This document shows, in pieces, positions 13,134 to 50,028 of a stretch of DNA of 54,482 nt (the first letter of the stretch is position 1; each line of letters opens with the position of its first letter). The DNA is taken from the IMG/VR virus record IMGVR_UViG_3300025066_000035, positions 1 to 54,482 of that record; one strand, 5' to 3'. Origin of the DNA: a virus. Taxonomy: Duplodnaviria; Caudoviricetes. The translations under genes were made by a program, and so were the position numbers. The notes below the pieces were generated by a model, which was not told the origin of the DNA, did not search any database, and was given only the letters and a program-made list of their open reading frames with translations.

Positions 13134-13136
13134 TGC

Positions 13137-31500: not shown

Positions 31501-34500
31501 AGCAAGTTGTGCGATTAGAATCTGAGTGAGCACATCTTTGTACTCGTCAGCGAAGTCCCAGTTGTACAGCTTCGTGAGAATCTGGCAGAAGGCATCTTCC
31601 AGATCCCCAGCCACAGGTGCTGTGGAACTGATGAACTCCCCTGTATACGGATTGGTCTCCTGGAACTCCAGCGAGTGGCAAGCCAAGCCAGGTTGGCCCT
31701 TAATGGTCTGAGAGGTTCCACGAGTATTGATTAGCCGACGAAGCAACATTGTGTCGTCAACAACCTTCTTAGGCCCCTCTAGCGGGTGATCTACAACGCC
31801 TTCGCCCTCCTTCCACAGGACGTCATTCTCTCGGTAGCTTCCTAGCAGACGAGTAATGAAAGAATCACCAGCAACAGCCCAGCTGTCAACAACTGGTCTG
31901 AAGTTGCGAGCGTTGGAGTGCAGCATGCCGCGCATTGCCATAAGCAGTTGCGCTTCCTTGGGAAGTCCTGCGAGATACTCCGCTCCAGTACCTTGATTGT
32001 CTAGAGAGCAGAATTCAAAGCTGTAGAAGGGCTCAATTGAGCCGAGGTGCTGTTGAGTTGGGAACTCGTGACCGAGAATCGGAATGTTGGCGACGACATG
32101 GCGCAGCCCGCCAGCAACTGCACTGAGCACCACGGGGCTATTGCGAAGCATGCCTTGGTTCAGCTCACCGTTCAGACGGTCAGCGTTGAGATGAAATTGC
32201 TTCCACCAGATATTGGTAACTGATGCTTCTCTATCGTAGTACATCCAGCCGTCATCCCACAGGGTCGTGAGAGTCTCCATTAGGCCGCTGGCGACTTCTT
32301 CGCCAAGCTCGGCTGTCAGAGCACGACTCACATCTTCGTCGTCTGCTCGCAGCAGGGTGGGATCGATTTCAATCTTTGGTGAGCCTGAGACAGCTAGTTT
32401 GTAGCTGCTGATTGGATCGACAGGAACTAAGCCCGAGTGAGAGTTATCGTAGATCCTCGGGATCTCATCTTCTGGATACTCGGGGTCTCGGTTGCCAGCC
32501 ATGTCCAACGGCTCCCAGTATTCGAAGTGCAAGTGAGCCCCGCGCAACCAAATGCTAGTTGGCTCCTCCTCTCCTGCGGCAAGATACTGCTGGTCTACTG
32601 GGATGATCTGAGTCTCTGTCCTGACTTCACCGTCCTTGAGGACGTCCATTGCTTGCTTCAGGAAGTCTTCCTTGAAGGGGCCAGTCTTGCCAGTGTAGCC
32701 AATAAGCTGTCCTGCATCGACTTGGTCTCCGTGGTCTACGAGCACTTCTGACAAGTGGACATAGCTACTCCACTCACCCTTGCCATGGTCAATGGTGATA
32801 CCCTGACCGCCTGACTTGGGCATCACCACGTAGTAAGCTCCTTGAATGCCTACGCTGGGCACAGCCATGCCTACGGGCCAGTGCTCTGCATCAAGCCCGA
32901 CAACACGACCACCAGCTTTGAACTGAACTCCAGGAACATGAGTCCTAAGAGACAGCTCAAAGTCGTTCATGTCGACCATGGCTTTTTCTTCAGGCGAAGT
33001 GCTAGATACCGTAGCTCCTGCCCAAACATCACCATCAAGCTGCAAGAGCTTAAACACGCCATCACGAGAACTGTTGTGAGCGTTAGCACGAGTCACTTTA
33101 CCAGCACTAACAGCGAACACAGGGTAGCCGACGCCAACAGGGAAGTCGGTACCATAGTGGGGCTTGTGATTGTGAGGGCTGCTGTAGAGCTTCTTGGCTA
33201 CAAGGGGGCCTCGGTACGAGACGTGTCCTGTTTGACCTTCGGCTACTCGGGGGAGAGGTAGCTTGTCTACATCGTAGGGTACGGCACTGTCCTTTGGTCC
33301 GATTGGGGCATACCTGCCGTCTGGATAGGTCCAGCCCCGGCGCACGAGCGACCGACCGAACACGCGCTTACCACGCAGCTCAACCATGTCATGGAAGTCG
33401 TAGTGCTCCATCCAAGCTTCTGCAAACTGGCTGCTGATACCGAGGTCATTCCTAGCGTTCTCGATAGAGTCAGCGTGAGCGCTTTGAATAGCTTCGGCGT
33501 ACTCTACTGGCATTCGCAGCTCGTTGTAAGCTGCGAAACTAAAGATCACGCCACCGTGATAGGAGTTCATCTCCTGGACCCACTTAGCTGCTGCTGCACG
33601 ATAAGTACGATAGAGACCAGAGTCTCTTGGGGGCCCTTGATGCAATCCGTAGGTGCGTCGTACCTGGCCCTCAAGGATAGCGCTGAACATCGAGGAGGAT
33701 AGTGGAGTAGGCTTGCCGCCTGGAGTCCTCAAGTCCTGCTCAACATCGATGCCAAAGTTACGCTTCAGCGCATCACGCTGAAGGTAGTTGATGTATCTGG
33801 TGTAGATTAGAGATTGGTCAGGTCGGGGGACAGTTAGGGCTGGCTGCATCCTGCCAGGCATAGGCTGGAGGTCAAAGATTTCTCCTCGATGTAGCTCCTG
33901 CATCTCCTCGATAGTTAGAGTCTTTCGGTCGTTATACTTGTTCTGAACGACATCCCAGGTTCGAACTCCGTTATCAACAGCATTAGAAAGTCCCGGCAAG
34001 ATAGTGTGCCGCGGAACCTTGCGGTCGCCATCCCAGTCCCAGCCAATAGTCAGCTCCATTGGCTCTACTTCCTCAAAGGGACCTTCAGCGCGGACTGGCA
34101 CAGTATGCCAGTCCCGACGATACAACCAGTTGTGAACGTATGGAGCGTAGTTGAACCAGGTGAGATCCAGCTGCATGATCCAGGTGTCTGAGCTGCCCTG
34201 CATGGGTGCAACAGACAAGCCCGTCATGGTGAAAGCCATGTTCTGAGTAATAGGCCAGTGCGGCGAGATAGTTTCGCGGAGGAACCTGTTCTCGATGTAA
34301 CAGAATGGGCTGTGTCTAAACTCGACAATGAGTCGATGCATATCCAAGACCTGGCCGCCGGTAAATGCAATCACAACACTAACAGCAATCTGGCCTTGGC
34401 CAGAGGGGATCTTAGTACTGGCGTTGCTTCTCAGCGTTCTCCACTGATGGATCAGATCTTCTTTTTGGATGGTGATGTCTGTGGGAGGAACTACCAGGTC

Positions 34501-34611
34501 GATGTCGTTAATGCGGAAAGTGTGCTGGCGCTTCGTTGAGCGGGGGACCTCAATTAGGTCACCTGCCTCAACTTTGATTCTGTCTTCTAGACTGCGTGAA
34601 CTGTCAAACAT
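25555..34611 (-). CDS. Giant baseplate hub protein (gp27/gpD-like) with M23 peptidase domain
   Basis: 3018 aa. M23 zinc motifs HYGTD (33145-33159), YVHL and HLHFE (32521-32535). Hub-like segments LRPGLNVQLRVGYS...LINGRIADI and GELISLGNARIRPWD...VEQVVHSFS..GFITEI. Confidence 0.8.
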   Translation of the reverse strand: MFDSSRSLEDRIKVEAGDLIEVPRSTKRQHTFRINDIDLVVPPTDITIQKEDLIHQWRTLRSNASTKIPSGQGQIAVSVVIAFTGGQVLDMHRLIVEFRHSPFCYIENRFLRETISPHWPITQNMAFTMTGLSVAPMQGSSDTWIMQLDLTWFNYAPYVHNWLYRRDWHTVPVRAEGPFEEVEPMELTIGWDWDGDRKVPRHTILPGLSNAVDNGVRTWDVVQNKYNDRKTLTIEEMQELHRGEIFDLQPMPGRMQPALTVPRPDQSLIYTRYINYLQRDALKRNFGIDVEQDLRTPGGKPTPLSSSMFSAILEGQVRRTYGLHQGPPRDSGLYRTYRAAAAKWVQEMNSYHGGVIFSFAAYNELRMPVEYAEAIQSAHADSIENARNDLGISSQFAEAWMEHYDFHDMVELRGKRVFGRSLVRRGWTYPDGRYAPIGPKDSAVPYDVDKLPLPRVAEGQTGHVSYRGPLVAKKLYSSPHNHKPHYGTDFPVGVGYPVFAVSAGKVTRANAHNSSRDGVFKLLQLDGDVWAGATVSSTSPEEKAMVDMNDFELSLRTHVPGVQFKAGGRVVGLDAEHWPVGMAVPSVGIQGAYYVVMPKSGGQGITIDHGKGEWSSYVHLSEVLVDHGDQVDAGQLIGYTGKTGPFKEDFLKQAMDVLKDGEVRTETQIIPVDQQYLAAGEEEPTSIWLRGAHLHFEYWEPLDMAGNRDPEYPEDEIPRIYDNSHSGLVPVDPISSYKLAVSGSPKIEIDPTLLRADDEDVSRALTAELGEEVASGLMETLTTLWDDGWMYYDREASVTNIWWKQFHLNADRLNGELNQGMLRNSPVVLSAVAGGLRHVVANIPILGHEFPTQQHLGSIEPFYSFEFCSLDNQGTGAEYLAGLPKEAQLLMAMRGMLHSNARNFRPVVDSWAVAGDSFITRLLGSYRENDVLWKEGEGVVDHPLEGPKKVVDDTMLLRRLINTRGTSQTIKGQPGLACHSLEFQETNPYTGEFISSTAPVAGDLEDAFCQILTKLYNWDFADEYKDVLTQILIAQLAGAQTSVPGGSDYGKYELQYLLGADQLDSVDGAALYSAGDEEFVVFGDPDPELVSLLSSLQQNVVTMPGTSIIGIPAALLTQPVKIENTRTKEWEATRGGLIGPLGLGARQATRAITNYHYDVSELLNQTQSNQLAAEIPLPKILDYWALIHETIVSAEMMLAEDQLQVQSGGRVEPGGVSEETARQELYCLPVKPSLFKYFQHWLSVAAEAAKIDWQLNWGDMEPGQATWQMQNNINWLYWSDGLDGDEKARIFLTNEHKGLVAAEGIGYGLLKTWDVAWTTATALLGFGEHVGMRQVLGEDPDQIAGHFANFVEAQYDLTFEQVAKSYLFFLPLKALAAQERFKSYVTESMFGDLTSTLLGFDGSPVFGNLVDQLKTVTASCGYWIPSSSPAATPWFIVNPPPRNRTTDDSYILEGGHLNPEVDEKGRIEVPAWKPAVGTLGHWLTNTAEGIYSFDSPFIWRVNADGESSKLQYFKGVFASYAQDLRRDPKLLRAFGLEGLASINRQARIQGAPAYPDLDLPHHPYYGSMASTSPDFYMWNIYEDGDAHASATLEAMYEAMNSIVDNCYLSMKHLEQGETYEADKDEFVLEPGLSDKIVLRQQYQAEGTDGGGQNDRGPTAYPYAPHPDSSDSITSFFGKMHDEADKAEDEANSSIATEVAQAAVGPAGAAVDEIAEAVTPGPTLTHAQVDELGNTQILDFRMSLTENYNGVGGGVQYPRRMPTEKYDELATTASSVKQMFGSRAGYTELQDFPDDLLEATTGSVIERDVDPSHRFNVASIKQLAKASARDITSQKRTMRRAYPTFKLFFVEEDEFESRLLNFDDFFSYNGVTSFNVVQSRKSPADHAVITLLNVGGSLDGTKRDAVVDLDYYSAEFAKTKIPGEESKTGGDTTTQGTVLDQPFGAVVLRPGLNVQLRVGYSNDPDELQVLINGRIADIQWNASGDRAEIMVQSFGTELMQAIKGASHTEDAPTYPTTHHLLGAMMLEPELMHFGRWEFGQLYQLGEGSDARLDFNDYSRDAFLGRFKVANASLKWMLDHPVITAAVIIAGGAVISRAPGAGKLFRSLGNTLGRAKWADDVLAALGLTGSGIGQGAWLRQLVRTAERRAPGVVFNAGEGVIATGDISAVMAKNAGQRNVIYKFLQRLGAKKQVGDLYVHQARAIYATAARSAKGKAPGKAAEIMAKADTEVLNLGFKGMWMTNPSATVGLTTDFVMGIGMQPVKNVFRGFITTVPIGIAGVSGAALGVDLFIAFTEPWIQPKIDRVKAYFRSKEVSLFLSPQDDNLYPPHPKDYMETFDNGFKEQLKQLGLWTVRTGVSAFTYSDEMGYSAARWAGGYDALDKRVDPNLCEFAVTGQTIWDIFHEMSLRHPGWIYGTRPYGNKFRYTMFFGVPSQRYWARPADNTFISRANDLHRLLSSDGDDPDITIDEFRMLYGDEYGGGYTVEEINDSLILSARNAAVEEGYRVSSENGADFFIREVAAGQGTVLTSDNVADSTGGYQSGALLGADPVVLASDVPVEDSRFYKAAVNTLLSTHAILEYMSALNLRFEPFRRYHSLSSDHDLVWNGLISSENAVYNAVDVTYFGDDYADGPAGSELFKAHAFIPDHKLRVLPLEPSYNVRGYGMAMRYGVGALLHTMRDMYRGELISLGNARIRPWDICILSDSYNDMVGPVEVEQVVHSFSHETGFITEIKPGAVVLANEISSWPVLEAMKMMSLATKDVEDSYQGLRLSEAGSIAHAVDWLLGKGAGGSTEYAEHLQERVDAISPFDAFALEDGTSDAADIDALGGEVKKALGLRGKFNDASRWLVAGASLAAAGVAFKAAPFVLKAVPQLGAEVSAFTRVAGASATGLAVFGSGAALMGMAGTATPSLQWLLGGPVLFLSCLRGDSIMMIPLMKNGHPIVSGLNLSDPSMIWNNFKGDLGRWADDHISGTRDLTDIWRLYGTHSWRRLNAGGLDPRGNFADESKIAYAQLTGEEG

Positions 34612-37600
34612 CAGTATTCTCCAAGGAGACGATCAACATAATTCTGGGTAATGGGGCGTCGGCTGTCATTGATGCGAATAGAACCAGCAGCGTTTCCACC
34701 GGTGAATTGACCGATCATGTTGCTTGCTTCCGCTAGCCCAGCATAGTGCTGAACGTTACCCCTAATGGAGTAGGCACCAGGCCTCTGCATGTAGGTGGTC
34801 CCTCTGTTGATTGGCGAATTCATCATAGCATAGCCCTGTTCTTGCTGCATGCTTTCTGGCGTCACCTGTGGATCATTGCCCTGGAACAGGTTTCCGCGAG
34901 CGATAGCATCAGCAACTGCTGGGTCAGTTGCTTCGCCAGGAACGCTGATTGGTGTAGCTGCGTACCCAGGGGAACCCATTGCTCCCAACGCCAGCATGCT
35001 AAGGCCAGCGCCCACAGCTAGTGGAAGCGTCATGCGTCGATCGATCTTGGACAGCGCTGACTTCATAGTCTCAAACGCGTTTGAAATTCTTGCAGGCTGG
35101 GCGCTGCCTGCAGCTTCACGCAGGGCAGCGTACTCCATGCTATTCCCAGCAAGCGAGTGCACAAAGTAAGCTTGGGGGTTGTCTAGAGCAGAGCGAGTAT
35201 GCTGGCCGTGGGTAAAGTCAAGAGTGCCGCCGGCATCCTTGTACTTAACAGCTGCGTCAAACAAATCGTCTACGAAAGAATCTACATTCCAACTCAAGTT
35301 GCCTGTGGCAGTAGCTCTATCCAAGAAGCTCTTCATGTTCTTTGAAGCAGCGTCCTGACCCGTAGTGGTGATCCTGCCAATGTCGATGGCGCCAGACTGT
35401 CCTCGCACAACCTTCTCTTTTAGGAGCGCACGAAAGTTCTCACGAGTGATTTCCGTAGGGTTCTTGACGAGGTTCTCTACACCAGCGCCCACCTGACCGG
35501 CCACGTCAGCATGACGCTCAATGTGCTTTGCTTTCAGTAGCACATGCTCTTCTAGCGCGCCGAGGAAGGACCTGTTCATACGCTGCCTCATTAAGTTCTC
35601 CGGCAGTTCGCCGCCGCCAAACTCCATGAAGGCTTCATGAGCACCACGAAGACGAGTATCCATAGCGCCAGTCGACATAGCAATATTGACTTCCTTCTTG
35701 ATGTTCTCTCTTTGAATAGCCATGGCATACGAAGCAGGATCCTTGGCGCTAATCCCCAGGATATCAGTTCCGTACTTAGTCATACCTCCCTTGATCATGC
35801 CTCCAAATTGATCCATGGCAGTGCGGTAGCGCAGCTCCTGTCCCATCTGCTGAGGGGTCATGTTCTGTAGCAGCTTGCGAACTCTCTGTGAATCACCCTT
35901 GGACAGAGTTACAGAGATAGCGGTATCGCCGTCAGCATCCATGAACGCCTGTGGGGCTAGACCGATATCCATAAGTCCAGCGGCTGTTTGAGCGTTCGCT
36001 CGGAGAACGGTCAGGGTTCCACCACCCTGGCCACCAGTGAACTTCTCTAGATTCCGCACTAGCACATTAAAGAATCGACGTTGCTTTGCCTTGCCTAGTT
36101 GCGCCACTTCCTCGAAAGACTTTAGTGTGCGCAGATCGTTATCAAGCTGGTCTCCAGCAGCAGCCATAAACTGACCAAAGAATTCATCCTTGCCGCCAAG
36201 ACGACCAACTTCCTTTACGTGCCTAAACATCTGAGTGACGAATACGTTTCCAGAACTCATCACAGGATGGCGGCCGCTCATACGGATAAGTCCCGAGGCC
36301 CTTGTGAGAGCCTCGGCCCTAGGCCCTGTCCTTTCCATTCCAGTAAAGAACTTCCTGGCCTGATGCGCCTTGTGGGCGAAGCCCCCACCCTGATTGTACA
36401 GTTCGCTCAGGAACATGGTGGTATCGCCCATTACCGGTGTCGCCCTTGTGCCAGTAAACAGCTTACTCATAGCTTCGCGAGCAGGGTCGGTGTAACCCAG
36501 GGCGGTATTGAGGTTGATCGCAGACACTCTGGGGCTAGAGCTTCCAGCAAGCTTTCCGCTAGAGAGACCAGTAATGGTTCTGGACATCAGGTCGATACCC
36601 TCTCTTTGCCAAGCCTTCAAGGACTTGCGTAGCTCATCGCCGGAGCCAGGGGTTTTGTTACCCGATAGCCTGGAAAACAACCCGTCTACTAGCCGCCCGT
36701 ATTGTCCGGAGATGTCCAGGGTTCCGCCACCAGCTTGCTTGATCATTGTGCCTGGAGCCGCATCGAAAGCAGCCTTGCCGCTTAGAGGCAAGGTGTCGTG
36801 GCCAAAGGTCTGCTGTACAGCTCGTCTCATATGAGGCGGAGCGTCAGAGAAGTCTAGGACGACACCCTTCTCTTGTTGCTTGAGGTACTCGCTCAAAGTG
36901 CCACCCTGCAAGGCGTCTGGCATCTGCTTCCAGCTCAGTCGCTGGGCTCCTCTCTCGGTGAAGGCATCAATGATGTTTCTCTGGCCCGTCATGCCTCGAC
37001 CCATATCCATCATCTCCTTCGCCATGGCGAAGTGCCTACCGAAACCAACCTTATTCATGTACATGTTTGAGACAACGTTGCTAGCGCCTTCGGCGCTCAT
37101 TCCCATTCCACGCAGACGCTCGAAAGAGGTCTTTGCAAAACGAGACTCGGTACCAACGCGTGCTGTACCCCAGTCACCAATAGACTCTCCAAACTGGAAT
37201 GTATCAACAAAACCGACGAGGCCTCTTCTCATTGCGCTGATAGCGTTTTTCTTGTCGCCAGCGCTCATTGTACTGGTGTTGATCATCGCTTCCAGCTGGT
37301 TGGTAGATAGCTGACCAGAGCGCAGCCCGGTGGTCTTGTTAACTCCGCCAGCTCCATAATAGACGCCAGCGAGAGCCATTCCGATCGCTCCTCCGCTAAC
37401 TCCTCGACTACGCAACTGACCAAACATAGCCTCAGCTACAAGACCGTGATGCCCTGCGGCGAATCGTCCACCGCCGCTAATGCGATCAACTGCGGTTTTG
37501 AGCGCCTTGTTGCTAACTCCATGCTGCCTAGCGCTACTGTAGAGCTGATGGGTGAAGATACCGGTACCCTTCTTGAACATATCAGACGACGTGTGAACGG

Positions 37601-39659
37601 CATCGTAGCGGATGCCTCTGATATTTGCGCCCGCAAGATCTTGCTCGGCCTGCAACAGCCTAGGGTCCTGCACGTACATCAAGTCGATAGCATGCTTACC
37701 ACGAGCTTCTACGTTGCCCTTGAAGGTCAAGCCGAACTGCTTGGCAAAGCCAATTCGACGCCTCATCTGTTCCGAGTAGTAAAGCATTTGCTTTCCAGCA
37801 GATGTACCTCGACCAGTATAGCGGATGGTGGTATCAATCATGTGGGGGTCTCTGCCAATGGACTTAGGCACATTTCCCGCTTGGCCAAAGTAACGACCTT
37901 CGTGGATTTGTGCAGCGGTGTAGGTCCGCGTTCCACCAGCCTGCATAACCTCATTCATAGTCTGACTGGCAGCGTATCCATGAGCACGCGGGTCCAGCAC
38001 TGACAAGACCCTAGACTTTAGTTGGGTCTGGCCGTGAGCACTAAAGGCTAGTCCTTGCCCCTGGACCTCTCGCCACAGAGCACCGCCCTTGTGATGCGCT
38101 GAAGCGTACTTGAAGTCTACAATCATGTACTTGTTGGATCCACCAGTAACTGTGGATCCCCACGCCATATTCTCTGCAACTCGACCAGCAGTACTTCCGA
38201 TACCTACGTGCCCAGCGCCAAGTGTTCTGAAGTCATCCAGCCCCATGGTGGCGCGACCTAGCACTTGGCTTTCGCGAGCCGTAATGGGCAGAGTGTTTCT
38301 GTTGATGGCGTCAGTACCATAGGCGTTCTGCAGCGCCTGGAATCCGCTTCCAGCGCTGAAGCCGATGATGCTTCGCCTATCAGCATTGAAGCCAGAGTGA
38401 AGTCTTTTACCACCAGCAGCGCCAGCATCCAGCACGTCATCAGACATCATAGCCAGGTTCGAGATCAGATCTAGCGAAGCATCGGTAGCGAGTCTTCCGA
38501 AGCTGTGTCCGTAAAGCACATTGCTTTGAAGCCGGGCTTGCTCAAGAACATGTCCGCCAAGAGCTGTGTCAGTGAATGCGGCGCGGTCTACGACCATCAT
38601 GGCCTCGCGCATCTCATCCTTGAAGCCCTTCATACCAGCACCGCTCTCGAGGTTCTTTCGCAAGATGTCGATGACGTGGTCTGGCATCTCACGAATAGCT
38701 CGCTGACCCTTCAGGGACTCATAAGTCATATTGCCAGCACCTACATCCATGCTGTGCCTATGAATATCTGTCATGTTTCCAGCTCGTGCTGGAGAAGCGT
38801 ATAGGGTGTTGAAGGATTCGCCTGAACGAAAAAGGAACCCGCGCTGCTCACCGCGGCCACCACCAAGCTGGATAGGTACGCTCGCTTGGTAAGCGCCGCC
38901 CGAAGACATAAGTTGCGCCACATACATATCGCGGCCACCACCCGGAGACTTGGCACTGTGTAGCGTGGCAGACATTCCTTCTGGAAGAGAGCTTTGCAAG
39001 GAATCAAAGCGCTTTCGCAAGGTGCCCTGGAGGGCACCTACGTCAACAGCACTAAAAGCTTGGCCAGACTTGATGTCTCCAAAGTTAGGAACTTGTAGCT
39101 GGCTAGCAACGCTTCTGGAGTAATCAAGGTTTTTGTTCCACTCCATCATCAGTTCATCGCTATTGGTTTCCAGCATGGTGCTGATCACACTGGTGGCTAG
39201 CTCTTTCAGAGTCTTCGGGTTGCTGTTAGACATCAGTTCAGACAGTGAACTCTTTAGTGAGTTCACTGCTTCAGCCCCTAGGCTTGCTGACGGACTCTCT
39301 AGCGTGACACTCATGGTGTGGATCAGTGCGTTGTGTTGCTTAAGTTGTGAGATCATCTGGGCCAGCTCAGGGTTCTTTGCGAGACCCTCGCTAAGTACTG
39401 TTCGCATACCCTCTACTGCTCGGGCTGCAGCTTCGTTTCGGGCGCGCTGATGGCTGCGAGCAGCGCCGCCGATGGCCTGACCAAGCTGTCTGTTGGGCGT
39501 CATTCTGTGCAGTGGGTTAGCAATAGTCTCATTAGACTTTAGTGACGTAAAGCCGTAGTATGCTCCAGCAGCAAGTGGAGCTAGCCCTGCCACGTTCTTG
39601 AGCAGTGACACACCACTGCGAATGCTAGTGCTACCTTCTTGGTCGTACTTAGAAGCCAC
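34611..39659 (-). CDS. Tape-measure-locus protein containing a putative single-chain two-barrel RNA polymerase (candidate virion RNAP)
   Basis: 1682 aa, GTG start. Ordered motifs KQFGLTFKG, GKLAGSSSPR, GRHP, DADGD and EEHVLLKAKH. Hydrophobic helices near both ends; C-terminus similar to that of the adjacent tape measure. The ORF is certain, the RNAP call is an inference. Confidence 0.6.
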   Translation of the reverse strand: MASKYDQEGSTSIRSGVSLLKNVAGLAPLAAGAYYGFTSLKSNETIANPLHRMTPNRQLGQAIGGAARSHQRARNEAAARAVEGMRTVLSEGLAKNPELAQMISQLKQHNALIHTMSVTLESPSASLGAEAVNSLKSSLSELMSNSNPKTLKELATSVISTMLETNSDELMMEWNKNLDYSRSVASQLQVPNFGDIKSGQAFSAVDVGALQGTLRKRFDSLQSSLPEGMSATLHSAKSPGGGRDMYVAQLMSSGGAYQASVPIQLGGGRGEQRGFLFRSGESFNTLYASPARAGNMTDIHRHSMDVGAGNMTYESLKGQRAIREMPDHVIDILRKNLESGAGMKGFKDEMREAMMVVDRAAFTDTALGGHVLEQARLQSNVLYGHSFGRLATDASLDLISNLAMMSDDVLDAGAAGGKRLHSGFNADRRSIIGFSAGSGFQALQNAYGTDAINRNTLPITARESQVLGRATMGLDDFRTLGAGHVGIGSTAGRVAENMAWGSTVTGGSNKYMIVDFKYASAHHKGGALWREVQGQGLAFSAHGQTQLKSRVLSVLDPRAHGYAASQTMNEVMQAGGTRTYTAAQIHEGRYFGQAGNVPKSIGRDPHMIDTTIRYTGRGTSAGKQMLYYSEQMRRRIGFAKQFGLTFKGNVEARGKHAIDLMYVQDPRLLQAEQDLAGANIRGIRYDAVHTSSDMFKKGTGIFTHQLYSSARQHGVSNKALKTAVDRISGGGRFAAGHHGLVAEAMFGQLRSRGVSGGAIGMALAGVYYGAGGVNKTTGLRSGQLSTNQLEAMINTSTMSAGDKKNAISAMRRGLVGFVDTFQFGESIGDWGTARVGTESRFAKTSFERLRGMGMSAEGASNVVSNMYMNKVGFGRHFAMAKEMMDMGRGMTGQRNIIDAFTERGAQRLSWKQMPDALQGGTLSEYLKQQEKGVVLDFSDAPPHMRRAVQQTFGHDTLPLSGKAAFDAAPGTMIKQAGGGTLDISGQYGRLVDGLFSRLSGNKTPGSGDELRKSLKAWQREGIDLMSRTITGLSSGKLAGSSSPRVSAINLNTALGYTDPAREAMSKLFTGTRATPVMGDTTMFLSELYNQGGGFAHKAHQARKFFTGMERTGPRAEALTRASGLIRMSGRHPVMSSGNVFVTQMFRHVKEVGRLGGKDEFFGQFMAAAGDQLDNDLRTLKSFEEVAQLGKAKQRRFFNVLVRNLEKFTGGQGGGTLTVLRANAQTAAGLMDIGLAPQAFMDADGDTAISVTLSKGDSQRVRKLLQNMTPQQMGQELRYRTAMDQFGGMIKGGMTKYGTDILGISAKDPASYAMAIQRENIKKEVNIAMSTGAMDTRLRGAHEAFMEFGGGELPENLMRQRMNRSFLGALEEHVLLKAKHIERHADVAGQVGAGVENLVKNPTEITRENFRALLKEKVVRGQSGAIDIGRITTTGQDAASKNMKSFLDRATATGNLSWNVDSFVDDLFDAAVKYKDAGGTLDFTHGQHTRSALDNPQAYFVHSLAGNSMEYAALREAAGSAQPARISNAFETMKSALSKIDRRMTLPLAVGAGLSMLALGAMGSPGYAATPISVPGEATDPAVADAIARGNLFQGNDPQVTPESMQQEQGYAMMNSPINRGTTYMQRPGAYSIRGNVQHYAGLAEASNMIGQFTGGNAAGSIRINDSRRPITQNYVDRLLGEY

Positions 39660-42600
39660 CGATGTACCTCTCTACTGCGCTGGAAATGTCGTGTTGGCGA
39701 TTGTCGTCATAACCGATCTGTACAGAACTCATTGTACCTGCTGAGGGAGCAATCTGCCAGGAGCCTCGGTTGCCAGGAATGCCAGTCATTCCACGAAGCG
39801 ACAAGTTCAGCGCCATGTTGCCGCCACCCATAAAGTCAGAACTTCCCTCAAGGAAAGGTTGCTGCATACTTTTCTTCAACTGGCTTTCCCACATACCGTA
39901 GTCATGTAGCTCAGCGCCCGTGCGATCTAGGTAGCGAACCTGAATATCGTCAATATCTACATCTTCGTGCCAGCCAATCCAGTCCGGGTTGGGTTGCGGT
40001 CGACCTTCCATGTACCCACGCGCACTAGCATACTGGGCAGCCATGTACTTGTCATCGATAGCCGCTGGGGCACCTGCCCACACGCCAGGGTCGCCAGAAT
40101 CCATTCGAGACCACAAGGCCTTGTACAAGTGCCGCTGATCTGAGGGGACCATCTCCAAGATGCGATGGCGCTCCTTTCCAGAAGCATGAGCGAAGGCGTT
40201 GAAGAACTTACGCTCAGGTCCAGGCAAAGTCCAGTACAAGCCCAGGGGGCTGCCTTGGGGGTTAACACCCTGACGAGTATTAGATGCAGCAAAGCGGTAG
40301 CGTTGAGCTGCCGCGTTGTCGCCTGCTGCACGTGCGCCATCAGCAAGAGACATGTACTTAATGAATTCTAGCTTGTCGAAGTACTCGTTGGTCGCGTCTG
40401 CTTCCTTACGCCACATTGGCGAACCGTCCCAACCCATCATGTGTGCTGCAGAGTAGGCACTCGGGCGCAGCCAGTCGCGCCATGGCTTATCCCAGAAAGC
40501 CATAGGCGTACCGTAGAGACGCTCATACTCGTATTGCTCAATAGGATCTCTGTTGCCCATAAGCTTTTGCACAGGGCGGAAACCCATGGGGACCAAATAC
40601 TCTGCTGGGGCAGCAACGTTTCTGAGCTGACGCTGAGAGAAAGCCCAGGCGCCCCGAGTAGCGCCACTACCGGGCATGCGAACAGCACGCTCATGCAAGC
40701 GATCATCACGGAAGCCGCTAACTACACGACGATGGCGTGCGTCAATCTGCTCCATGTACTCGACTTCTCTCTGAGAGAACGCGCCATCTGCGCGCTTCTT
40801 GTACACTTGCTGCTTAAGCATGTTGTACTCGGGAGACATTGGAGCGACATCAGACATGATGGCATAGCGATGGATGAGCGGATAAGCTTCGGAATCCATT
40901 CCCCGAAGTTCGGGGTGTAGCGCCGCATAGCCAGCGCCTGGGAGTCGAGCCTCTCCCCACTCTACGTTGCGGTATGGATCTCCCCAGTGGAACTTGTCAG
41001 GCAGCCAGCTCGGCATATTGTTTGCCAGCGGATTGACGCGTTCAATCTCGCTTCTGTATCTGGGCAGAATACGTCGAACGAATTCGTTAGTGAATAGCGC
41101 GCCACCCATCTGGCCTTCCCAGAAGCGAACGCGCGCACTGCTCATCAAGGATGCGTCAGCAAGCGTGGGGTTGTCACTACCCCACACATCCTCGCCCGTA
41201 ATAGACTGTTGGATTACATTCTTAGCCCAACCAGTCATACCTTCCAGCTCTCTGAACTGGTAAGAGAGATATGATGCCTGAGACCCAAGACCATAAGGGT
41301 CTTGGGGAATGCCATGGTGAGCGCCGAGCGCCATTGCTGGTTCGCGACGACTTCCCTGGTACACCGAAGCGTACTCCAGACCTCCCTCTGCACCCGGGCG
41401 GATCCATTCACCAGCGTGCATTACTCGTGCAGGCTTGATCAACTTCCCCACAGTGCTGGCGAGCACGCCACCAATGATAGGTACATCAGCAAATGCTGCG
41501 CTACTCATTGGGTAAGGACGGTTCCAGTACTGGCTTTCTTCTAGCTGGTAGGTGAAGTTCTTTCTGAAGAACTTCCCGATGGGAGAGATGGAGTCTTCAT
41601 CAGGTCCCCAGATCCCTGCCTCACGCGAACGGTTCATCATCAAGTGGTACTGATGTGGACGATAGTACTCATCGTCACCACCAGCAAATGGAGTACCACC
41701 AGCTTCCCACCACCTACTCTTCTTGACAGCAATATGCTTCTTGCCAGAGTAGATGTCGCGGAGGTCATCTGAAGTCTCCTTGGACCCCAGGAACCCACCA
41801 GTCAACAACCCATGGGCTGCAAATGCTGCGGCACCAATAGAGCCCCAGCGACCCCAGCGACCCACTCCCGTAGGCAGATTGATGTGGCCCTTCGAACTTC
41901 TTACTGCACCAAAGCCCATGTCTTGGATGCGCTCACGCATAGCCTTGTCGACCCCAAGGTCGGCGCCGAAGAAGCTGTAGTAGGCTTGAGAGGCAGCACC
42001 ACGAACTTCACGCTGGATACTGTCTACAAGATTGTTTCCAGCGTACTTATTGGAGATCTGCTGCAAACGACGCTCAAGTGCGTTGTTTAGTGGGTTGGCC
42101 TTCGCAAACTTCTCGATGTCTCTTTCTGCCTGATACCACTGAGTATTCATCTGACGGAAGAACCCAATGCTGTCTCCACGTCCAGAGAACTGCGAATGCA
42201 GATCTCGCATCATGCGAGTGCGCTGAGCAATGCTTGAGTGAGGCATGGCCCCGCCAGTGCTAAGCCCAGACATGCGCTCCCAGAACCGACGACGTACACC
42301 CTGTGTCGCCTGCCCCACTTGGTTGACAGCGCCAGGATCCATAAGCAGCCCAAGCCGCCCAGGACCAGCGCCCTGAAGGAGCTGTTGGGCAACAGTACCT
42401 CGGGCACTTGGCAGCTGGACGGAAGCTGCACCAAGAGCTGACACAGCAAATAGCGCGCCAGTTTCCCAGTCGGAAGCTCCAGGAGCGAACCCCTCAAGGG
42501 TTCTGCGAAGGTAGTTGAATGGGTTCAGTACGTTGGCTCGGGCAATGTCCATGTTCACAGCAGTGGTAGACATGCCGGCCCAGACCCCCTGATCGAAGCC

Positions 42601-43803
42601 AGGAAGTACCATCTGCCCAAAGAAGCTGGCGACACCAGCCATAGCAGCAGTTCGAGGACTGCTGCCTAGTTTGCCGAGACCGTAAGCGAGGCCACCACTA
42701 ACCAGTCCGCTTGCTAGCATTTCTCCAGGCCAGCTGAAGTTTCTGCGCATCCAGTCTGTTTGCTGGACACCCATGTAGATACCACCCGCTGCTGCTGCTC
42801 GACCACCAAAGCGCGCAAGCATAGCACTAGCAGGGCCGGAACGAACGCCAGGCTGTACTCCAAGAATCTTCTGAAAGGCTTTGCCTCCCTTGTCTCCCAG
42901 AAACTGCTCAGACACTCCAGAGATCAGTCGATTGAATCGATCCATCTCGAACGCAGCGATACCTCTTACGAAGTTAGTTCTGCGACCTAGGTCAGCAACG
43001 CTCTCGATTGCACCGCTCATGGAAGGCATGAACATGAATGGTGCCTGCTGGCTCTTCATGCGCTTGCCAACAGGATCCCAAACGTCTCGGACAAGCAGGT
43101 CTTTGTGCGAGAACTCCCTGCCGTCGCCGCCCAGTACCTTGCTGCCCATATTCGCAGCGTCAAGCATTCCTGTAGCAATACGATTCATGCCCCGCTCTTG
43201 AGTGAGCGGGTTCACGATCTCATGGCCAATAGCTACAAGAGATGCATCTCGGGTAAGCAGCTTCTTGGTTCCACCGGTCCACTGACCAGTCTTGGAATCA
43301 AGGCTGCCTCCAAAAACAGAGTAGAGTTCACCGCTAGTGCGGGTTCCTTTCTGCTGCCACAAGACAGCATCTGCTGCGTTCTCTGTGGCCTTCATGCCGC
43401 GGCTAATGCCTGCAGCCCGTAGTTCAGCCTCTGTCTTGCCTGTAGTGTACTTTAGCCACTCGTAGGTACTTTCTGTCTTTAGGAAGTCCTTTCCCCAGAC
43501 AGTGACACCCTCAACGCCTTCAGAGCCAGTCTTGTAAGCAAGTGAGGTAAAGGGGCTGGCTAGTTCCGGCACTCGGAAGGTATTGAACAGCTGGAACGGC
43601 GAAAGGTTTCCAGCTGTTCTGGAGATAGCTGCGATGTGGTCGATGGGGCGCACGCCCCCAGCAAGGTTCCTTGTAGCTCCATAGAGCCCAATGCCACCAA
43701 GGCCAGCGGCAACGCCCAAAGACATTGCCTGGCTAGATGCTGAGTGATAGGGTGTCGCCTCTTGGTCATTCCAAGTTACGCCACCAAAAGACCTGCCTGG
43801 CAC
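39649..43803 (-). CDS. Tail tape measure protein
   Basis: 1384 aa, Gly/Ala-rich and helical with several hydrophobic segments; directly downstream of the tail chaperones. Confidence 0.7.
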   Translation of the reverse strand: MPGRSFGGVTWNDQEATPYHSASSQAMSLGVAAGLGGIGLYGATRNLAGGVRPIDHIAAISRTAGNLSPFQLFNTFRVPELASPFTSLAYKTGSEGVEGVTVWGKDFLKTESTYEWLKYTTGKTEAELRAAGISRGMKATENAADAVLWQQKGTRTSGELYSVFGGSLDSKTGQWTGGTKKLLTRDASLVAIGHEIVNPLTQERGMNRIATGMLDAANMGSKVLGGDGREFSHKDLLVRDVWDPVGKRMKSQQAPFMFMPSMSGAIESVADLGRRTNFVRGIAAFEMDRFNRLISGVSEQFLGDKGGKAFQKILGVQPGVRSGPASAMLARFGGRAAAAGGIYMGVQQTDWMRRNFSWPGEMLASGLVSGGLAYGLGKLGSSPRTAAMAGVASFFGQMVLPGFDQGVWAGMSTTAVNMDIARANVLNPFNYLRRTLEGFAPGASDWETGALFAVSALGAASVQLPSARGTVAQQLLQGAGPGRLGLLMDPGAVNQVGQATQGVRRRFWERMSGLSTGGAMPHSSIAQRTRMMRDLHSQFSGRGDSIGFFRQMNTQWYQAERDIEKFAKANPLNNALERRLQQISNKYAGNNLVDSIQREVRGAASQAYYSFFGADLGVDKAMRERIQDMGFGAVRSSKGHINLPTGVGRWGRWGSIGAAAFAAHGLLTGGFLGSKETSDDLRDIYSGKKHIAVKKSRWWEAGGTPFAGGDDEYYRPHQYHLMMNRSREAGIWGPDEDSISPIGKFFRKNFTYQLEESQYWNRPYPMSSAAFADVPIIGGVLASTVGKLIKPARVMHAGEWIRPGAEGGLEYASVYQGSRREPAMALGAHHGIPQDPYGLGSQASYLSYQFRELEGMTGWAKNVIQQSITGEDVWGSDNPTLADASLMSSARVRFWEGQMGGALFTNEFVRRILPRYRSEIERVNPLANNMPSWLPDKFHWGDPYRNVEWGEARLPGAGYAALHPELRGMDSEAYPLIHRYAIMSDVAPMSPEYNMLKQQVYKKRADGAFSQREVEYMEQIDARHRRVVSGFRDDRLHERAVRMPGSGATRGAWAFSQRQLRNVAAPAEYLVPMGFRPVQKLMGNRDPIEQYEYERLYGTPMAFWDKPWRDWLRPSAYSAAHMMGWDGSPMWRKEADATNEYFDKLEFIKYMSLADGARAAGDNAAAQRYRFAASNTRQGVNPQGSPLGLYWTLPGPERKFFNAFAHASGKERHRILEMVPSDQRHLYKALWSRMDSGDPGVWAGAPAAIDDKYMAAQYASARGYMEGRPQPNPDWIGWHEDVDIDDIQVRYLDRTGAELHDYGMWESQLKKSMQQPFLEGSSDFMGGGNMALNLSLRGMTGIPGNRGSWQIAPSAGTMSSVQIGYDDNRQHDISSAVERYIGGF

Positions 43804-44540: not shown

Positions 44541-45347
44541 TCAGAGCTGTGCAGTCAGAACCATTGCCTGCTGTGGTGTCAGGTGGTAACTGTGCAGCAT
44601 GACAGAATTGTACAGGGTGGGGATTACACCAGCGCGACTGTTGTACCAGAACTTAACGGTAAGCTTCGGCCACAGGATGCAGGACTTTAGGACTTGCTCA
44701 GTCATGTACTCATCAGGGTCCTTTGCCATTCCTTCAATCTGAGACTGCTTGATAGTCGCTGCCTGGATACTCTGGAAGTGCTGACGACGCAAGTAGGTAA
44801 AGACGTAAACGTCACCTTCTCCTAGCGCCATAACTTGTACGCCACCAGGCCCATACTCTTGCTTCCATTTAGCAATCTGGGCCTCTGATGGAGCGCCCTC
44901 GGACTTATGGAGAAGCTCTAGGACTTGTTCCTCAATAGACATTTCTACCTGCTCTTCTACCTGCTCTGGAGCTTCTGTTGCTGCTGCCTGAGCTTCTGCT
45001 GCTCGGCGAGCTTGCTGCTCGGCGAGCTTGCGATCAAGCTCTGCGTTGATTGCATCTAGGTCTTTGGCCACTGGTGGCTCCTGGGGATAAATAGTGTCGT
45101 CTTCACCCGGAAGAGCAACCAATGGGCGCATCTTGGGGTACGGTTCTGTACGAGTTGGACCAGGGAGGGTCGGGGCTCCTTCTGCCAGCTCAACGCCCTT
45201 GGCTTCTGCCTGCTCAACGATCTCTTCGTTGAGTGCATCAACATTCGAAAGAATGTCATCTGCTGATGGCGCCACGGACTTTAGTGTCTGCAACTGTCGG
45301 GGGTTGAGACTTGGAATCTTATCGCTTCTTACTCTTCTACCTGCCAC
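44541..45347 (-). CDS. Tail assembly chaperone (paralogue 1)
   Basis: Disordered acidic N-terminus, then IAKWKQEYG...YVFTYLRR...CILWP...AGVIPTL, in the chaperone position. Confidence 0.65.
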   Translation of the reverse strand: MAGRRVRSDKIPSLNPRQLQTLKSVAPSADDILSNVDALNEEIVEQAEAKGVELAEGAPTLPGPTRTEPYPKMRPLVALPGEDDTIYPQEPPVAKDLDAINAELDRKLAEQQARRAAEAQAAATEAPEQVEEQVEMSIEEQVLELLHKSEGAPSEAQIAKWKQEYGPGGVQVMALGEGDVYVFTYLRRQHFQSIQAATIKQSQIEGMAKDPDEYMTEQVLKSCILWPKLTVKFWYNSRAGVIPTLYNSVMLHSYHLTPQQAMVLTAQL

Positions 45348-45357
45348 TTAAGGCTCC

Positions 45358-46044
45358 TTAATTCGATTGTAGGATGGTGGTCACAGTGACTTCGTCGTCA
45401 ACGGCAACAACTGTACCTTCCTTATATGGGTTTCTTGTTGAGAACACGTCGCGGGCAAAGAACGGGTAAGCCTCGACGATTACTTCCTCATCAATCTTAA
45501 TCACCGAAGACCTGCCCGTAAAATGAACATCTCGTAGGAGAAGGCCTGTTTTACCGGATGGCTTCATGGCGCTCTGGGCGCCAAAGGCGGCGGTGATATC
45601 AATACCGCCTTGAAAGTCGTGAGGGTTCCTAGTTAGATTCAAATACCGATTAGGGTCACTAAGGTCTGCTGAGGCCCAGTACTGAGCCTTCATGTTTTCG
45701 ATGAAGGCAACTGCTTCATCGTAATCTCCTGCGAGAGCAGTGAGATCTGCCTCGTCGCCTCCAGACACGATGGGAGAAGTTTGCTGCCTGGGCGCGGTCT
45801 GACCGAGACCGCGTTGGACTGCTTTGAACAAATAGTCTTGGTGGACGTAGTTGATCAGCAAGGTCCCACGAACAATAACTTGCCCTGCCGCTACAGCATC
45901 GTAGTGCCTGCTGCTGTAACCGTAGATAGGCATCTTGCTGTCGTCAACTTGGTACTGAAGTCCTGCAGCTTCTATCAGAGGCATTCCCTCTGCGTACAGG
46001 ACAACGTTGGCGCCGCAAAAATACTCAAAGCCATACATACTCAT
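45358..46044 (-). CDS. Tail tube-fold protein (tube initiator-like paralogue)
   Basis: YFCGANV, KMPIYGY, GQVIVRGTLLIN and IVEAYPFFARD parallel the tube protein motifs. Confidence 0.7.
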   Translation of the reverse strand: MSMYGFEYFCGANVVLYAEGMPLIEAAGLQYQVDDSKMPIYGYSSRHYDAVAAGQVIVRGTLLINYVHQDYLFKAVQRGLGQTAPRQQTSPIVSGGDEADLTALAGDYDEAVAFIENMKAQYWASADLSDPNRYLNLTRNPHDFQGGIDITAAFGAQSAMKPSGKTGLLLRDVHFTGRSSVIKIDEEVIVEAYPFFARDVFSTRNPYKEGTVVAVDDEVTVTTILQSN

Positions 46045-46919: not shown

Positions 46920-46938
46920 GCGCACTCCTCAGAATGAA

Positions 46939-46970
46939 ATGACCAGGCCTCCCCGAAGAGACCTGGCCAT
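46939..46970 (-). terminator. Stem-loop after the tail tube gene (probable intrinsic terminator/attenuator)
   Basis: Minus strand ATGGCCAGGTCTC-TTCGGG-GAGGCCTGGTCAT, a 13-bp stem with two G-U pairs, followed by TTCATTCT. Confidence 0.65.
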
Positions 46971-47670: not shown

Positions 47671-50028
47671 TCAGAGCTCGGACTCGTCCGCGGCAAGGCT
47701 TGTTTCAACAGTGATGGACTCAATGCTGAATGGTGGGATCATGCGGAGCTTGATCTTGAGGCGTCCCATGATCTTGTCCTCACGACTGTATTCGATCCTG
47801 GCCTTTGCACCAAGGTGCATGCCACTACCCTGCTCGGACACGATGAACGCGTCGATTGCAGACTGGAGCGAAGCTAGGCGCTGAGCGCTGAAGTCCTTAC
47901 CGATGTAAGGTCTAGCCAGGTTTCGGATGCCGGCTAGCATACGATTCACGGAGCGAATTGTAGATAGGCGGGTGTAGTCAGAATCTGGATGAGCTGCTGT
48001 CTTAGCAGTGGTCAGAATCAGAGTACCGGAAGTGTCATCACGGCGAATGCCGATGATGCGCTGGCCAGCTAGATCATTGATCTGGGTACTGTGAACTCTT
48101 GTTGGAGACTGAGTCTTCTTCAAGATTCCGTTGATACCGATTGGCTCTTCGTTCTCGGGCATAACCGCCACCTTACCGAAGAAGGTGCCTGGGATCGCAC
48201 CGCGGTAGCTGGTGCCACCATCGTATGCGTTTGTCAGGATAGGCCAGTCGTAAGTCACGAAGACGTGCTTGCCTAGGTCAACAGCCTTACCGCCGGAGTC
48301 AGTGGCCTCGTCAGAGTCCTTGATTCCGTATGGCCAATCCGTACCATTAGGAAGACTTGCTCCCTTAGTCAGAATCAAACCACCGTAAGCGTAACCGTCA
48401 GAGCTGTTGCCACCATCGACTTCTGAGCTACGGTAACCTTCACTGGTCTTTGAGAAACCAGCGATCAGCTTGTGTCCCAGGACACCGCTTCCGTTGTCAG
48501 ATGGGCTGTCGATGTAAATGTCGGTGCCGTCATCAGTCAGGGTTGGTGCAACACCAATCCAGTCTGCGATCTTGGAGCGACTGTATCCCTCTGTCGGAGC
48601 CTTGAAGCTGAGAGCGCCAACCATGGTGCTCCAGTTTGTAGAGGCAACGTAGCAGAAAGTTGCGAGCTGGTGAGCGAAGTTGACTTCGCGTAGCTCGGCA
48701 TCTGCACCAGCAGTCCAAAGAGTGCTGACAGCAGTTGGGATGGTCTCGCCAGTTAGGTCCTGGTGGGTCAGAATTGCACCACCGGTACCGCCAGCCAAGT
48801 TGGTCTTGGCAAGTGCCAGAGCAACAGTAGCAGAAGCACTGGAGCTTTCACCCAGCAAGCTGCTAACGAGCACGCCACTACGAAGAGTCTTGGCGGCGAA
48901 GTCAGTTCCTAGCTGAGTCTCGACGTCACTGAGAGTGTCGGAAGTACCGTCAACTTCAATCCAGATATCGATACCGTGATCGGTCTCTGTGATCTCGACG
49001 TCTACTCCACCTGAACCAGTAGTGACGATTTCAACAGTTACGCCGTTGCCGCCCTTGCCGTTCTTGGAGGCGGTGATGACTAGGTCAGTCTGAATGGCGA
49101 GTGTTGCAGCTGCATCCACACCGTCGAAGTAATCCTCAACGTCGCTGATGTAGGTGAAGACTCTACCCTTGTAGCGGTATTCCCATGCGAAACCTAGTGC
49201 GTCTTCGGCAGAAGCAGCCTCAGGAACACCCTTCCAGAAGTAACCGTAGTTCTCTGGATCGGTGCTACCAGTACCGGCTGCGTCGAAGTTGGTGTCGTCA
49301 GTAACATTGATGTCATCCACATATACGTCTGTGGGAACAATCATGTCAGCGTCACGGTAATCGAGAAGATGGTAGGTTGCGTTAAGTGCAGCATAGCGCT
49401 CAGCACGGCTGACGGTGATGCCGTCAGTACCTTCGGTTGCTACAACTGAAGATGCTGTAGCAGTGCCATCGGCAGTGAAGTCGCCAGTAGCGACTGTGTC
49501 TAGTGCGTCAGCAGAGGGGATGTCGTCCTTGTCAAAGAGAGAGAACAGGTCAATGCCTGAGTCCTCAACAGTAACGATGCCTTCGTCGAGAACAAGAGTC
49601 TCGTCGGAATCGTATACCCACTCTTCGTCTGTAAGGTCGTAAACCATGTATCGGTTGCTGGAGCCATCGTTCTCAATGAAGAGCGCGTAGCGTCCAAGAA
49701 TGTCGTCGTCGCGATAGCTCGGAGTGACAGTCAGAGTGTTGGAATCGGAGTCGGTGAAGACCCAGTTTCCTTCCTGACCACCGCTTCTGATGATCGCAAG
49801 GTTGTCAGCGCCCTGAGCAACACACTCATGGACAGCACGAAGTACTTCAGTACCAGATCCGAACTCCTTCTCAGCGACAGCAATGTTAGAAACATTGTAG
49901 ATCTCGTTAGTTAGTCCAGATGAAGCTGGGCCAACGATAAGGATCTTGGGCTGAGAGGAAGCGCTTGGAATCTTAAATGCGCCGTCTAGGTATGTTGCCT
50001 TGACACCTGGAATGTTCTCGTAAGGCAT
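47671..50028 (-). CDS. Contractile tail sheath protein
   Basis: N-terminal IPGV and AEKEFGSG; C-terminal RLSTIRSVN...IRNLARPYIGK...IPPFSIESITV, as in sheath C-terminal domains. 785 aa. Confidence 0.9.
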   Translation of the reverse strand: MPYENIPGVKATYLDGAFKIPSASSQPKILIVGPASSGLTNEIYNVSNIAVAEKEFGSGTEVLRAVHECVAQGADNLAIIRSGGQEGNWVFTDSDSNTLTVTPSYRDDDILGRYALFIENDGSSNRYMVYDLTDEEWVYDSDETLVLDEGIVTVEDSGIDLFSLFDKDDIPSADALDTVATGDFTADGTATASSVVATEGTDGITVSRAERYAALNATYHLLDYRDADMIVPTDVYVDDINVTDDTNFDAAGTGSTDPENYGYFWKGVPEAASAEDALGFAWEYRYKGRVFTYISDVEDYFDGVDAAATLAIQTDLVITASKNGKGGNGVTVEIVTTGSGGVDVEITETDHGIDIWIEVDGTSDTLSDVETQLGTDFAAKTLRSGVLVSSLLGESSSASATVALALAKTNLAGGTGGAILTHQDLTGETIPTAVSTLWTAGADAELREVNFAHQLATFCYVASTNWSTMVGALSFKAPTEGYSRSKIADWIGVAPTLTDDGTDIYIDSPSDNGSGVLGHKLIAGFSKTSEGYRSSEVDGGNSSDGYAYGGLILTKGASLPNGTDWPYGIKDSDEATDSGGKAVDLGKHVFVTYDWPILTNAYDGGTSYRGAIPGTFFGKVAVMPENEEPIGINGILKKTQSPTRVHSTQINDLAGQRIIGIRRDDTSGTLILTTAKTAAHPDSDYTRLSTIRSVNRMLAGIRNLARPYIGKDFSAQRLASLQSAIDAFIVSEQGSGMHLGAKARIEYSREDKIMGRLKIKLRMIPPFSIESITVETSLAADESEL

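Follow-up and report, generated by a model that had tools for sequence, protein, structure and literature searches.

The 54,482-base window analysed here (positions 1 to 54,482 of IMG/VR record IMGVR_UViG_3300025066_000035) is a fragment of an uncultured virus with an estimated completeness of 41%, in which the minus strand carries all of the long open reading frames (ORFs). One of these encodes P0001, a giant protein that is a candidate for an RNA polymerase ejected from a phage tail. In the order of transcription, the window encodes virion proteins, a tail sheath, four small paralogues, a 241-residue ORF, three giants of 1384, 1682 (P0001) and 3018 residues, and then baseplate genes, with baseplate-wedge-like matches to phrog_6 and phrog_120 followed by fibre-sized ORFs. 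These genes make up a tail module, that of a phage with a contractile tail. The 1384-residue neighbour has no match to any known family, and the 3018-residue neighbour combines an M23 peptidase domain (Pfam E 9e-15; PDB matches to lysostaphin and ShyA) with a later part related to the baseplate hub/endolysin gp147 of Bacillus phage 0305phi8-36. In that phage the slot of P0001 is held by the 'hypothetical tape measure' gp146, and that of the 1384-residue ORF by the virion protein gp145. The P0001 family keeps this tape-measure slot, between tube/chaperone and hub genes, in five of five loci (the window, L002, L003, L004 and the genome G006). An original prediction, made from the letters of the window alone, had proposed a two-barrel polymerase encoded by a separate tape-like gene of a contractile-tailed phage, and the location of P0001 agrees with it.

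The five motifs on which that prediction was built are all present in the translation of ORF 34611-39659 (minus strand), where residue i begins at nucleotide 39659-3(i-1), and include R1130-H-P (36264-36272), D1241-A-D-G-D1245 (35925-35939) and LEEHVLLKAKH (residues 1369-1379, 35523-35555). P0001 has seven close homologues, at 39-72% identity, and 131 cluster representatives (E<=0.001, in a library clustered at 50% identity) that are mostly 1650-1830 residues long. Conservation was counted in 137 family proteins aligned to a hidden Markov model (HMM) built from 46 diverse members. The aspartates D1241, D1243 and D1245 are each found in 107 of 107 sequences, with G1244 in 96 of these, and DxDxD is single and at the equivalent place in all 89 members of at least 1300 residues. 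The canonical DFDGD is the commonest form of the triad (34/107), hence the DADGD of the window, which had been regarded as atypical and itself recurs in 11/107, is one of many variants. On its own a lone D.DGD is not uncommon, with three ORFs of a 192-kilobase (kb) relative having one, and the evidential weight therefore lies in the invariance of the triad.

The other near-invariant positions of the family are few, and nearly all are charged. They comprise R462 (90/91) and Q465 (91/91); the upstream basic residues K640, K647, K697 and R840 (Table 1), which stand in the right order before R-x-P and DxDGD; R1130 (102/103), P1132 (103/103) and R1146 (101/104); E1371 (118/118), K1376 (114/118) and K1378 (115/118); and a C-terminal set of D1665 and R1667 (131/131 each), G1680 (115/115) and Y1682 (77/77). 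Hence the expectation that the aspartates, K640, K647 and R1130 would hardly vary among homologues was borne out, but H1379, proposed as the trigger-loop histidine, is a histidine in only 10 of 118 sequences and a lysine in 99, and that assignment fails. Likewise, G1035 and K1036 are kept within LSSGKLAGSSSPR, but the 'SSSPR' that had been taken as part of this motif is not conserved (P1043 in 24/96). P0001 evolves faster than its neighbours, scoring 262 bits against its G006 counterpart, compared with 1090 and 1491 bits for the adjacent giants. No match to P0001 was found by tblastn in 50,697 phage records, which thus hold no cultured member; no prophage copies were found in 185,579 species genomes using two close peptide patterns; and no fused longer forms were found, although this last negative is weak evidence.

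Table 1. Coordinates of P0001, its sequence features and its neighbours in the window (nucleotide positions; residue numbers refer to P0001 unless stated).
Feature	Position	Strand	Details
Candidate ejected two-barrel RNA polymerase P0001	34611..39659	-	1682-residue ORF, GTG start, 0 Cys
Gly/Ala-rich apolar N-terminal stretch, residues ~15-37	39549..39617	-	Kept in 7 homologues; under hydropathy cut-off
N-domain motif LPITARESQV	38262..38291	-	R462 and Q465 conserved in family alignment
K640-x6-K647-G, candidate second-barrel basic pair	37716..37742	-	Invariant lysines, 91/91 each
SSDMFKKGTGIFTHQ with K697	37545..37589	-	K697 91/92; alternative candidate for 'KG + hydrophobic strand' motif, not significant
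R840, near-invariant arginine	37140..37142	-	92/93 in family alignment
LSSGKLAGSSSPR, residues 1032-1044	36528..36566	-	G1035 93/96, K1036 88/96, G1039 92/96, remainder variable
R-x-P segment, residues 1118-1150	36210..36308	-	R1130, P1132, R1146 conserved; match to gp96 733-751
Family-specific insertion of ~75 residues between R-x-P and DxDGD	35985..36209	-	Conserved D1158, F1197, Gly-rich GGQGGG
DxDGD segment, residues 1226-1275	35835..35984	-	Invariant Asp triad; match to gp96 DFDGD loop and next strand
LGALEEHVLLKAKH, candidate bridge helix or trigger loop	35523..35564	-	E1371, K1376, K1378 conserved
Hydrophobic segment MTLPLAVGAGLSMLALGAMGS, residues 1543-1563	34971..35033	-	Hydropathy
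C-terminal tail motif ...INDSRRPITQNYVDRLLGEY	34614..34679	-	D1665, R1667, G1680, Y1682 conserved
Tail sheath gene	47671..50028	-	phrog_16991, E 9e-37; contractile-tail context
Upstream neighbour, 1384 residues, cysteine-free	39649..43803	-	C-terminus ...DDNRQHDISSAVERYIGGF, P0001-type tail motif
Downstream neighbour, 3018 residues	25555..34611	-	M23 peptidase part and gp147-homologous baseplate-hub part
Internal RLLGSY, residues 921-926 of the 3018-residue ORF	31834..31851	-	Copy of C-terminal tail motif

A DxDxD aspartate triad is characteristic of the two-barrel, or double-psi beta-barrel (DPBB), superfamily (PMC10770324; PMC7824862), and the order of basic residues, R-x-P, DxDGD and the E1371/K1376/K1378 cluster in P0001 fits that of single-chain two-barrel polymerases (PMC10770324). 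The enzymes used for comparison were SPbeta YonO, phi14:2 gp66, Escherichia coli beta and beta-prime, 0305phi8-36 gp99, and gp64 and gp96 of Thermus phage P23-45, the last being a virion two-barrel RNA polymerase fused to the tape measure, as is also described for P74-26, G20c and TSP4 (PMC10770324). The spacing between R-x-P and DxDxD is 35-44 residues in all of the known enzymes fetched, and 111 residues in P0001, which the original prediction had correctly singled out as atypical. Residues 1151-1225 were cut by hand, guided by the motif positions, leaving a core of 83 columns (1118-1150 and 1226-1275). With the insertion removed in this way, the core matched residues 729-809 of gp96 at an hhalign probability of 72.1% (P 3.4e-5, score 36.4), using a gp96 profile of four sequences that included three added relatives, among them TSP4 (35% identity). 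The alignment places RHPVMSSGNV on RNPVMGHGGA and DADGDTAISV on DFDGDTLVVL. None of 100 column shuffles of the core scored as high (mean 12.7, maximum 18.5), nor did any of 100 in which the DxDGD block was held fixed (mean 23.2, standard deviation 2.6, maximum 34.0), and six unrelated large proteins scored 12-16.6. Furthermore, the 33-column R-x-P segment, which contains none of the aspartates, found the R-N-P site of gp96 (733-751) among 901 profile positions (P 0.0055, 0/40 shuffles). Hence two separate segments locate their counterparts in gp96 in the right order. The core also aligned with E. coli beta-prime, with R-x-P on R425-A-P and DxDGD on D460-FDGD (score 23.8, P 0.006, 0/40 full shuffles).

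The motif set of P0001 is thus real and strongly conserved, and one barrel's worth of similarity to gp96, together with the genomic context, leads to the interpretation that P0001 is probably an ejected two-barrel RNA polymerase. Several results weigh against this reading of the sequence. Firstly, general searches were negative: Pfam gave no match at E<=1 for P0001 of the window or for any of 27 diverse members, PHROGs and NCBIfam gave none for P0001, the PDB gave none either by sequence or by family profile, and the family profile did not match gp96 residues 1-1200. Secondly, the stronger gp96 match (P 3.4e-5) depends on the hand removal of 1151-1225, as the default hhalign comparison with the insertion left in gave the gp96 family a probability of 4.5% (P 0.009) over the DxDGD neighbourhood only, and a distance of 111 residues between R-x-P and DxDGD is unlike any known member. 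Thirdly, comparisons of the core with other enzymes were less specific: the beta-prime score was reached by 4 of 40 controls that kept the Asp block; a proteobacterial beta-prime profile (80 loci) gave P 0.007 only, with the Asp loops aligned; gp64, gp66 and YonO showed, beyond the DxDGD block, no more than controls keeping that block; and gp99 gave P 0.067, a value that comes with no shuffle control. Fourthly, when compared with gp96, gp64, gp66, YonO, beta and beta-prime, the putative second barrel gave no significant match, and neither did the first half of the catalytic barrel or the part of the chain that follows it. Finally, the equivalent giants of 0305phi8-36, gp145 and gp146, differ from P0001 in lacking DxDxD and any HMM match to the family, so that this phage has no tail-slot polymerase candidate.

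Taken element by element, the rest of the chain likewise gave nothing significant against the known enzymes, whether around K640/K647 or K697, at the GK motif of position 1035, in the 300 intervening residues, or around E1371/K1376/K1378. One non-significant alignment placed K647-G648 on K548-G549 of gp96, and KKGTGIFTHQ (696-705) resembles by eye the KG-plus-strand motif of gp96, gp64 and YonO, again without statistical significance. Hence, of the divergent two-barrel enzyme originally envisaged, the invariant Asp triad and the R-x-P, which both match gp96 in order, have held up, but its beta-side barrel, 'GK...R' motif, bridge helix and trigger loop have not reached significance. Two other sets of alignments were set aside: a match of the 615-710 region to gp96 157-230 (P 0.021) was treated as chance, as it falls outside the gp96 polymerase domain, and relaxed-gap hhalign scores, which were very high but uncalibrated and accompanied by odd alignments, were disregarded.

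With one expected polymerase element alone having statistical support, a less likely alternative is that P0001 has no polymerase activity and serves as a tape-measure or ejection protein. Its DxDGD and Lys/Arg residues would then form another kind of metal or ligand site, such as that of a hydrolase or of a nucleotidyltransferase with a different fold, or a structural calcium or magnesium site, and the gp96 match would reflect the common descent of tail-lumen proteins or convergence. This explanation accords with the position of P0001 in the slot of the 'hypothetical tape measure' gp146, and with a weak alignment of the 68 C-terminal residues of the P0001 family to residues 2457-2528 at the end of gp146 (P 0.023). 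Language-model features of P0001, which serve as leads only, also lean weakly towards tape-measure proteins (scores 0.85-0.91), with PhageMin_Tail clusters among the neighbours. Pfam and PHROG searches found no recognised tape-measure domain in P0001 (0 families). However, the segment of gp96 that was matched is the catalytic barrel and not the tape part, the polymerase spanning residues 327-1124 (PMC10770324). Moreover, the invariant residues of P0001 are with few exceptions charged (K,K,K,R,R,D,D,D,E,K,K), a pattern like that of an active site and unlike tape measures, which diverge fast except at their end (PMC2147016), and the commonest form of the motif is the canonical DFDGD.

The interpretation of P0001 as an ejected polymerase also draws on features shared with the proteins encoded beside it. 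Neither P0001 (0/1682 residues) nor the 1384-residue neighbour (0/1384) contains cysteine, against 70 of 16197 residues (0.43%) in the window's 31 remaining ORFs. Cysteine is absent from 88 of 89 full-length members of the P0001 family, and from the orthologues of both giants in G006, L002, L003 and L004. Both giants also end in the same type of tail, ...INDSRRPITQNYVDRLLGEY in P0001 and ...YDDNRQHDISSAVERYIGGF in the 1384-residue ORF, which is conserved in four relatives and is the most conserved part of P0001. A similar tail lies at the very end of 0305phi8-36 gp145 and near the end of gp146, of which only the last 60 residues are conserved with its nearest relative (PMC2147016). The 3018-residue ORF carries an internal copy, RLLGSY, after its M23 peptidase, with RLLGTF or RLLGTY in relatives, which suggests that a former third tail-lumen protein is now fused to the hub; the motif may mark the fusion point or a processing site. 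The C-terminal tail would plausibly be a docking signal, and the absence of cysteine would reflect passage through the tube and periplasm.

A second polymerase is encoded elsewhere in the genomes of relatives. Two of these are complete: G001, a 192.5-kb contig rated complete, with three giants as in the window, and G006, of 183.5 kb with terminal repeats. The 1090-residue protein P0139 (G001 ORF 11957-15229) has R500-F-P and D546-D-D-G-D550, 46 residues apart, and the R-x-P and DxDGD residues are invariant across its 21 homologues. P0139 matched nothing in Pfam, PHROG or the PDB, but its catalytic region aligned with 0305phi8-36 gp99 at an hhalign probability of 86-88% (P 3.5e-6 to 5.4e-6, the former with a probability of 87.6%). 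In turn gp99, which matches the Pfam RdRP family PF05183 (E 1.1e-20), has long been interpreted as a phage RNA polymerase (PMC2147016, PMC7824862). P0001 has no match to PF05183 in Pfam, and its whole profile found nothing in the P0139 family, although the LGALEEHVLLKAKH segment gave a weak local match (P 0.043). Genes resembling P0139 and P0001 occur together in both complete relatives and in one 57%-complete fragment, with four smaller fragments (22-33% complete) having the P0139-like gene only. The second polymerase is present in G001, G002 and G006, and the window, as a 41% fragment, is without that early region. Neither beta-prime (PF00623) nor sigma70 region 2 (PF04542) was found in G001 or G006, and among 142 G001 ORFs scanned with Pfam there were replication genes but none for a transcription factor. 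The T7-type family PF00940 was also sought in G001, G002 and G003 and not found, but this negative is uninformative, as the family rang in no control. With a tail-linked P0001 and an intracellular P0139, the lineage therefore resembles P23-45, which has two two-barrel enzymes.

P0139 has several cysteines, including four invariant Cys/His positions, and the contrast with the cysteine-free P0001 family is one of three observations that make it very improbable that P0001 is instead a non-packaged intracellular polymerase, whose gene merely lies within the tail operon. The second is that its position between the tube/chaperone and hub genes is kept at all five loci compared, and the third is that its C-terminal tail is common to the neighbouring giant and to virion proteins of 0305phi8-36; on the other side, the window itself holds no direct sign of packaging. 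It is likewise improbable, if less so, that the two-barrel fold is present but serves another task, such as pulling in the genome by transcription, making primers, or acting as an RNA-dependent or DNA polymerase of the QDE-1 or PolD type. Although RNA-dependent RNA polymerases and archaeal PolD also belong to the superfamily (PMC10770324; PMC7824862), the closest match of P0001 is a DNA-dependent virion transcriptase, and genes for Pol III alpha and a DnaG-type primase are already present in the relatives.

If P0001 is an ejected polymerase, it would be a very diverged single-chain enzyme of the two-barrel, or cellular RNA polymerase, superfamily built into a contractile tail. The triad D1241/D1243/D1245 would bind the catalytic magnesium ions, and the upstream lysine and arginine residues would belong to the second barrel. 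The protein would be held in the tail through its conserved C-terminus, beside the 1384-residue protein, which carries this motif too. When the tail contracts, P0001 would pass through the tube and periplasm in a largely unfolded state, a passage that would account for its lack of cysteine, before refolding in the cell to transcribe the first phage genes, including the second, gp99-like polymerase gene of the complete relatives. A broader and more doubtful proposal, which is possible but is put forward only tentatively, is that this lineage loads the tail lumen with a cysteine-free cargo set (a tape-like protein, a hub-fused M23 cell-wall peptidase and a two-barrel RNA polymerase) under one C-terminal address motif, D-x-R...[DE]-R-h-h-G-x-Y/F, with the polymerase, threaded unfolded and refolded, starting a programme independent of the host polymerase that the gp99-like polymerase continues.

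Phages of the N4-like, phiKZ-like and crAss-like groups have virion RNA polymerases, as does one siphovirus group (P23-45), in which the enzyme lies within the tape measure. The polymerase of coliphage N4, which is encapsidated in the virion, has a T7-like rather than a two-barrel fold, and P0001 would resemble it in concept, as a giant ejected polymerase for early genes. The protein gp66 of Cellulophaga phage phi14:2, a podovirus-like crAss phage, is located in the head, and YonO is not known to be a virion protein. Both are like P0001 in being single chains with R-x-P before DxDxD (about 40 residues apart in gp66 and YonO), but neither has similarity to P0001 beyond the Asp block. The virions of phi14:2 contain gp66 and eject it together with their DNA (10.1101/2020.03.07.982082).

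The closer parallels are with P23-45 and 0305phi8-36. P0001 shares with gp96 a location in the tail module, R-[NH]-P-V-M-x-x-G and D-x-D-G-D-T segments that align in order, a metallopeptidase and hydrophobic segments within the gene block, and a second, non-virion two-barrel polymerase elsewhere in the genome, in this case that of relatives. However, P23-45 is a siphovirus, whereas the tail here is contractile; gp96 carries polymerase, peptidase and tape on one 5002-residue chain, whereas here there are three ORFs, with the M23 peptidase on the next one; and P0001 has a 75-residue insertion in its catalytic barrel and no detectable similarity to gp96 outside about 80 residues. Hence, being a separate chain with a large insertion in a contractile-tailed phage, P0001 is not strictly of the gp96 type. 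The likeness to 0305phi8-36 is one of gene order, with sheath, tube paralogues, chaperone-like genes, two giants and hub in the same sequence (PMC2147016; NC_009760), and extends to the C-terminal tail motif shared by gp145 and gp146 and to gp99 as the relative of P0139. Of gp145, gp146 and gp147, all but gp147 were detected in virions by mass spectrometry (record NC_009760).

The literature searched, including the available part of PMC7824862, contained no account of a tail-delivered two-barrel polymerase in a contractile-tailed phage. If the broader proposal of a tail-lumen cargo set is true, no myovirus transcriptase delivered by the tail would have been known before P0001, which would form a modular counterpart to the single giant gp96 chain of P23-45. 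If P0001 is an ejected polymerase at all, its family, with at least 131 sequence clusters from uncultured phages that have contractile tails and genomes of about 180-190 kb, would mean that cell-type polymerases are widely delivered through tails. The family would also provide a second, independent case of the passage of a 1700-residue enzyme through a tube followed by its refolding, and add a very diverged branch to the tree of two-barrel polymerases. Other phages could be searched for tail-lumen cargo with the common C-terminal tail and the lack of cysteine as sequence marks.

The early regions of the relatives contain repeated cassettes, one before each small early gene, at 8880-11815 of L088 (G001, upstream of the P0139 gene) and 79-1821 of L102 (G006). 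Each consists of a GC-rich hairpin, the sequence of which varies, and then CTCTTTTATGG(C/T)A, in an arrangement of the hairpin-TTTTATGG type; in four cassettes ATGTCCTGGAGGACATTATG comes next, forming a further small hairpin that covers the ribosome site and the start codon. The TTCTTTTATGG core of the cassettes recurs in the distant relative G006. Such a cassette may combine a terminator with a promoter for a phage polymerase. The early-gene motif of the relatives was not found in the window, in which there was one one-mismatch match against 1.2 expected. About 400 nucleotides upstream of the P0139-like gene of G006, a 15-nucleotide GGGGCTGACCTCC-like unit is repeated in tandem at least 16 times (L102 2260-2613). 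Further genes of G001 (L089 11366-12568 and other loci) code for a full-length EF-Tu homologue, a Ro60/TROVE-vWA protein, an RNA ligase, a poly(A)-polymerase-head protein, two ClpP homologues, a LAGLIDADG-interrupted Pol III alpha and RIIA.

Within the window, the four tandem small paralogues after the sheath (45358-47649 and 44541-45347) include three that match phrog_9206, the label of which, 'major head protein', looks misleading, as notes in the 0305phi8-36 record name members as tail tube or tube paralogue. The 1384-residue giant has a Gly-rich apolar region at about residues 328-410 and one segment above the hydropathy cut-off (768-789), and could be either the actual tape measure or an ejection protein that inserts into membranes. 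At 2035-3146, methyltransferase-like and sulfotransferase-like ORFs lie beside the fibre-sized ORFs, with two heptosyltransferase-like genes at the matching place in a relative, and these genes may modify sugars of the virion or host surface.

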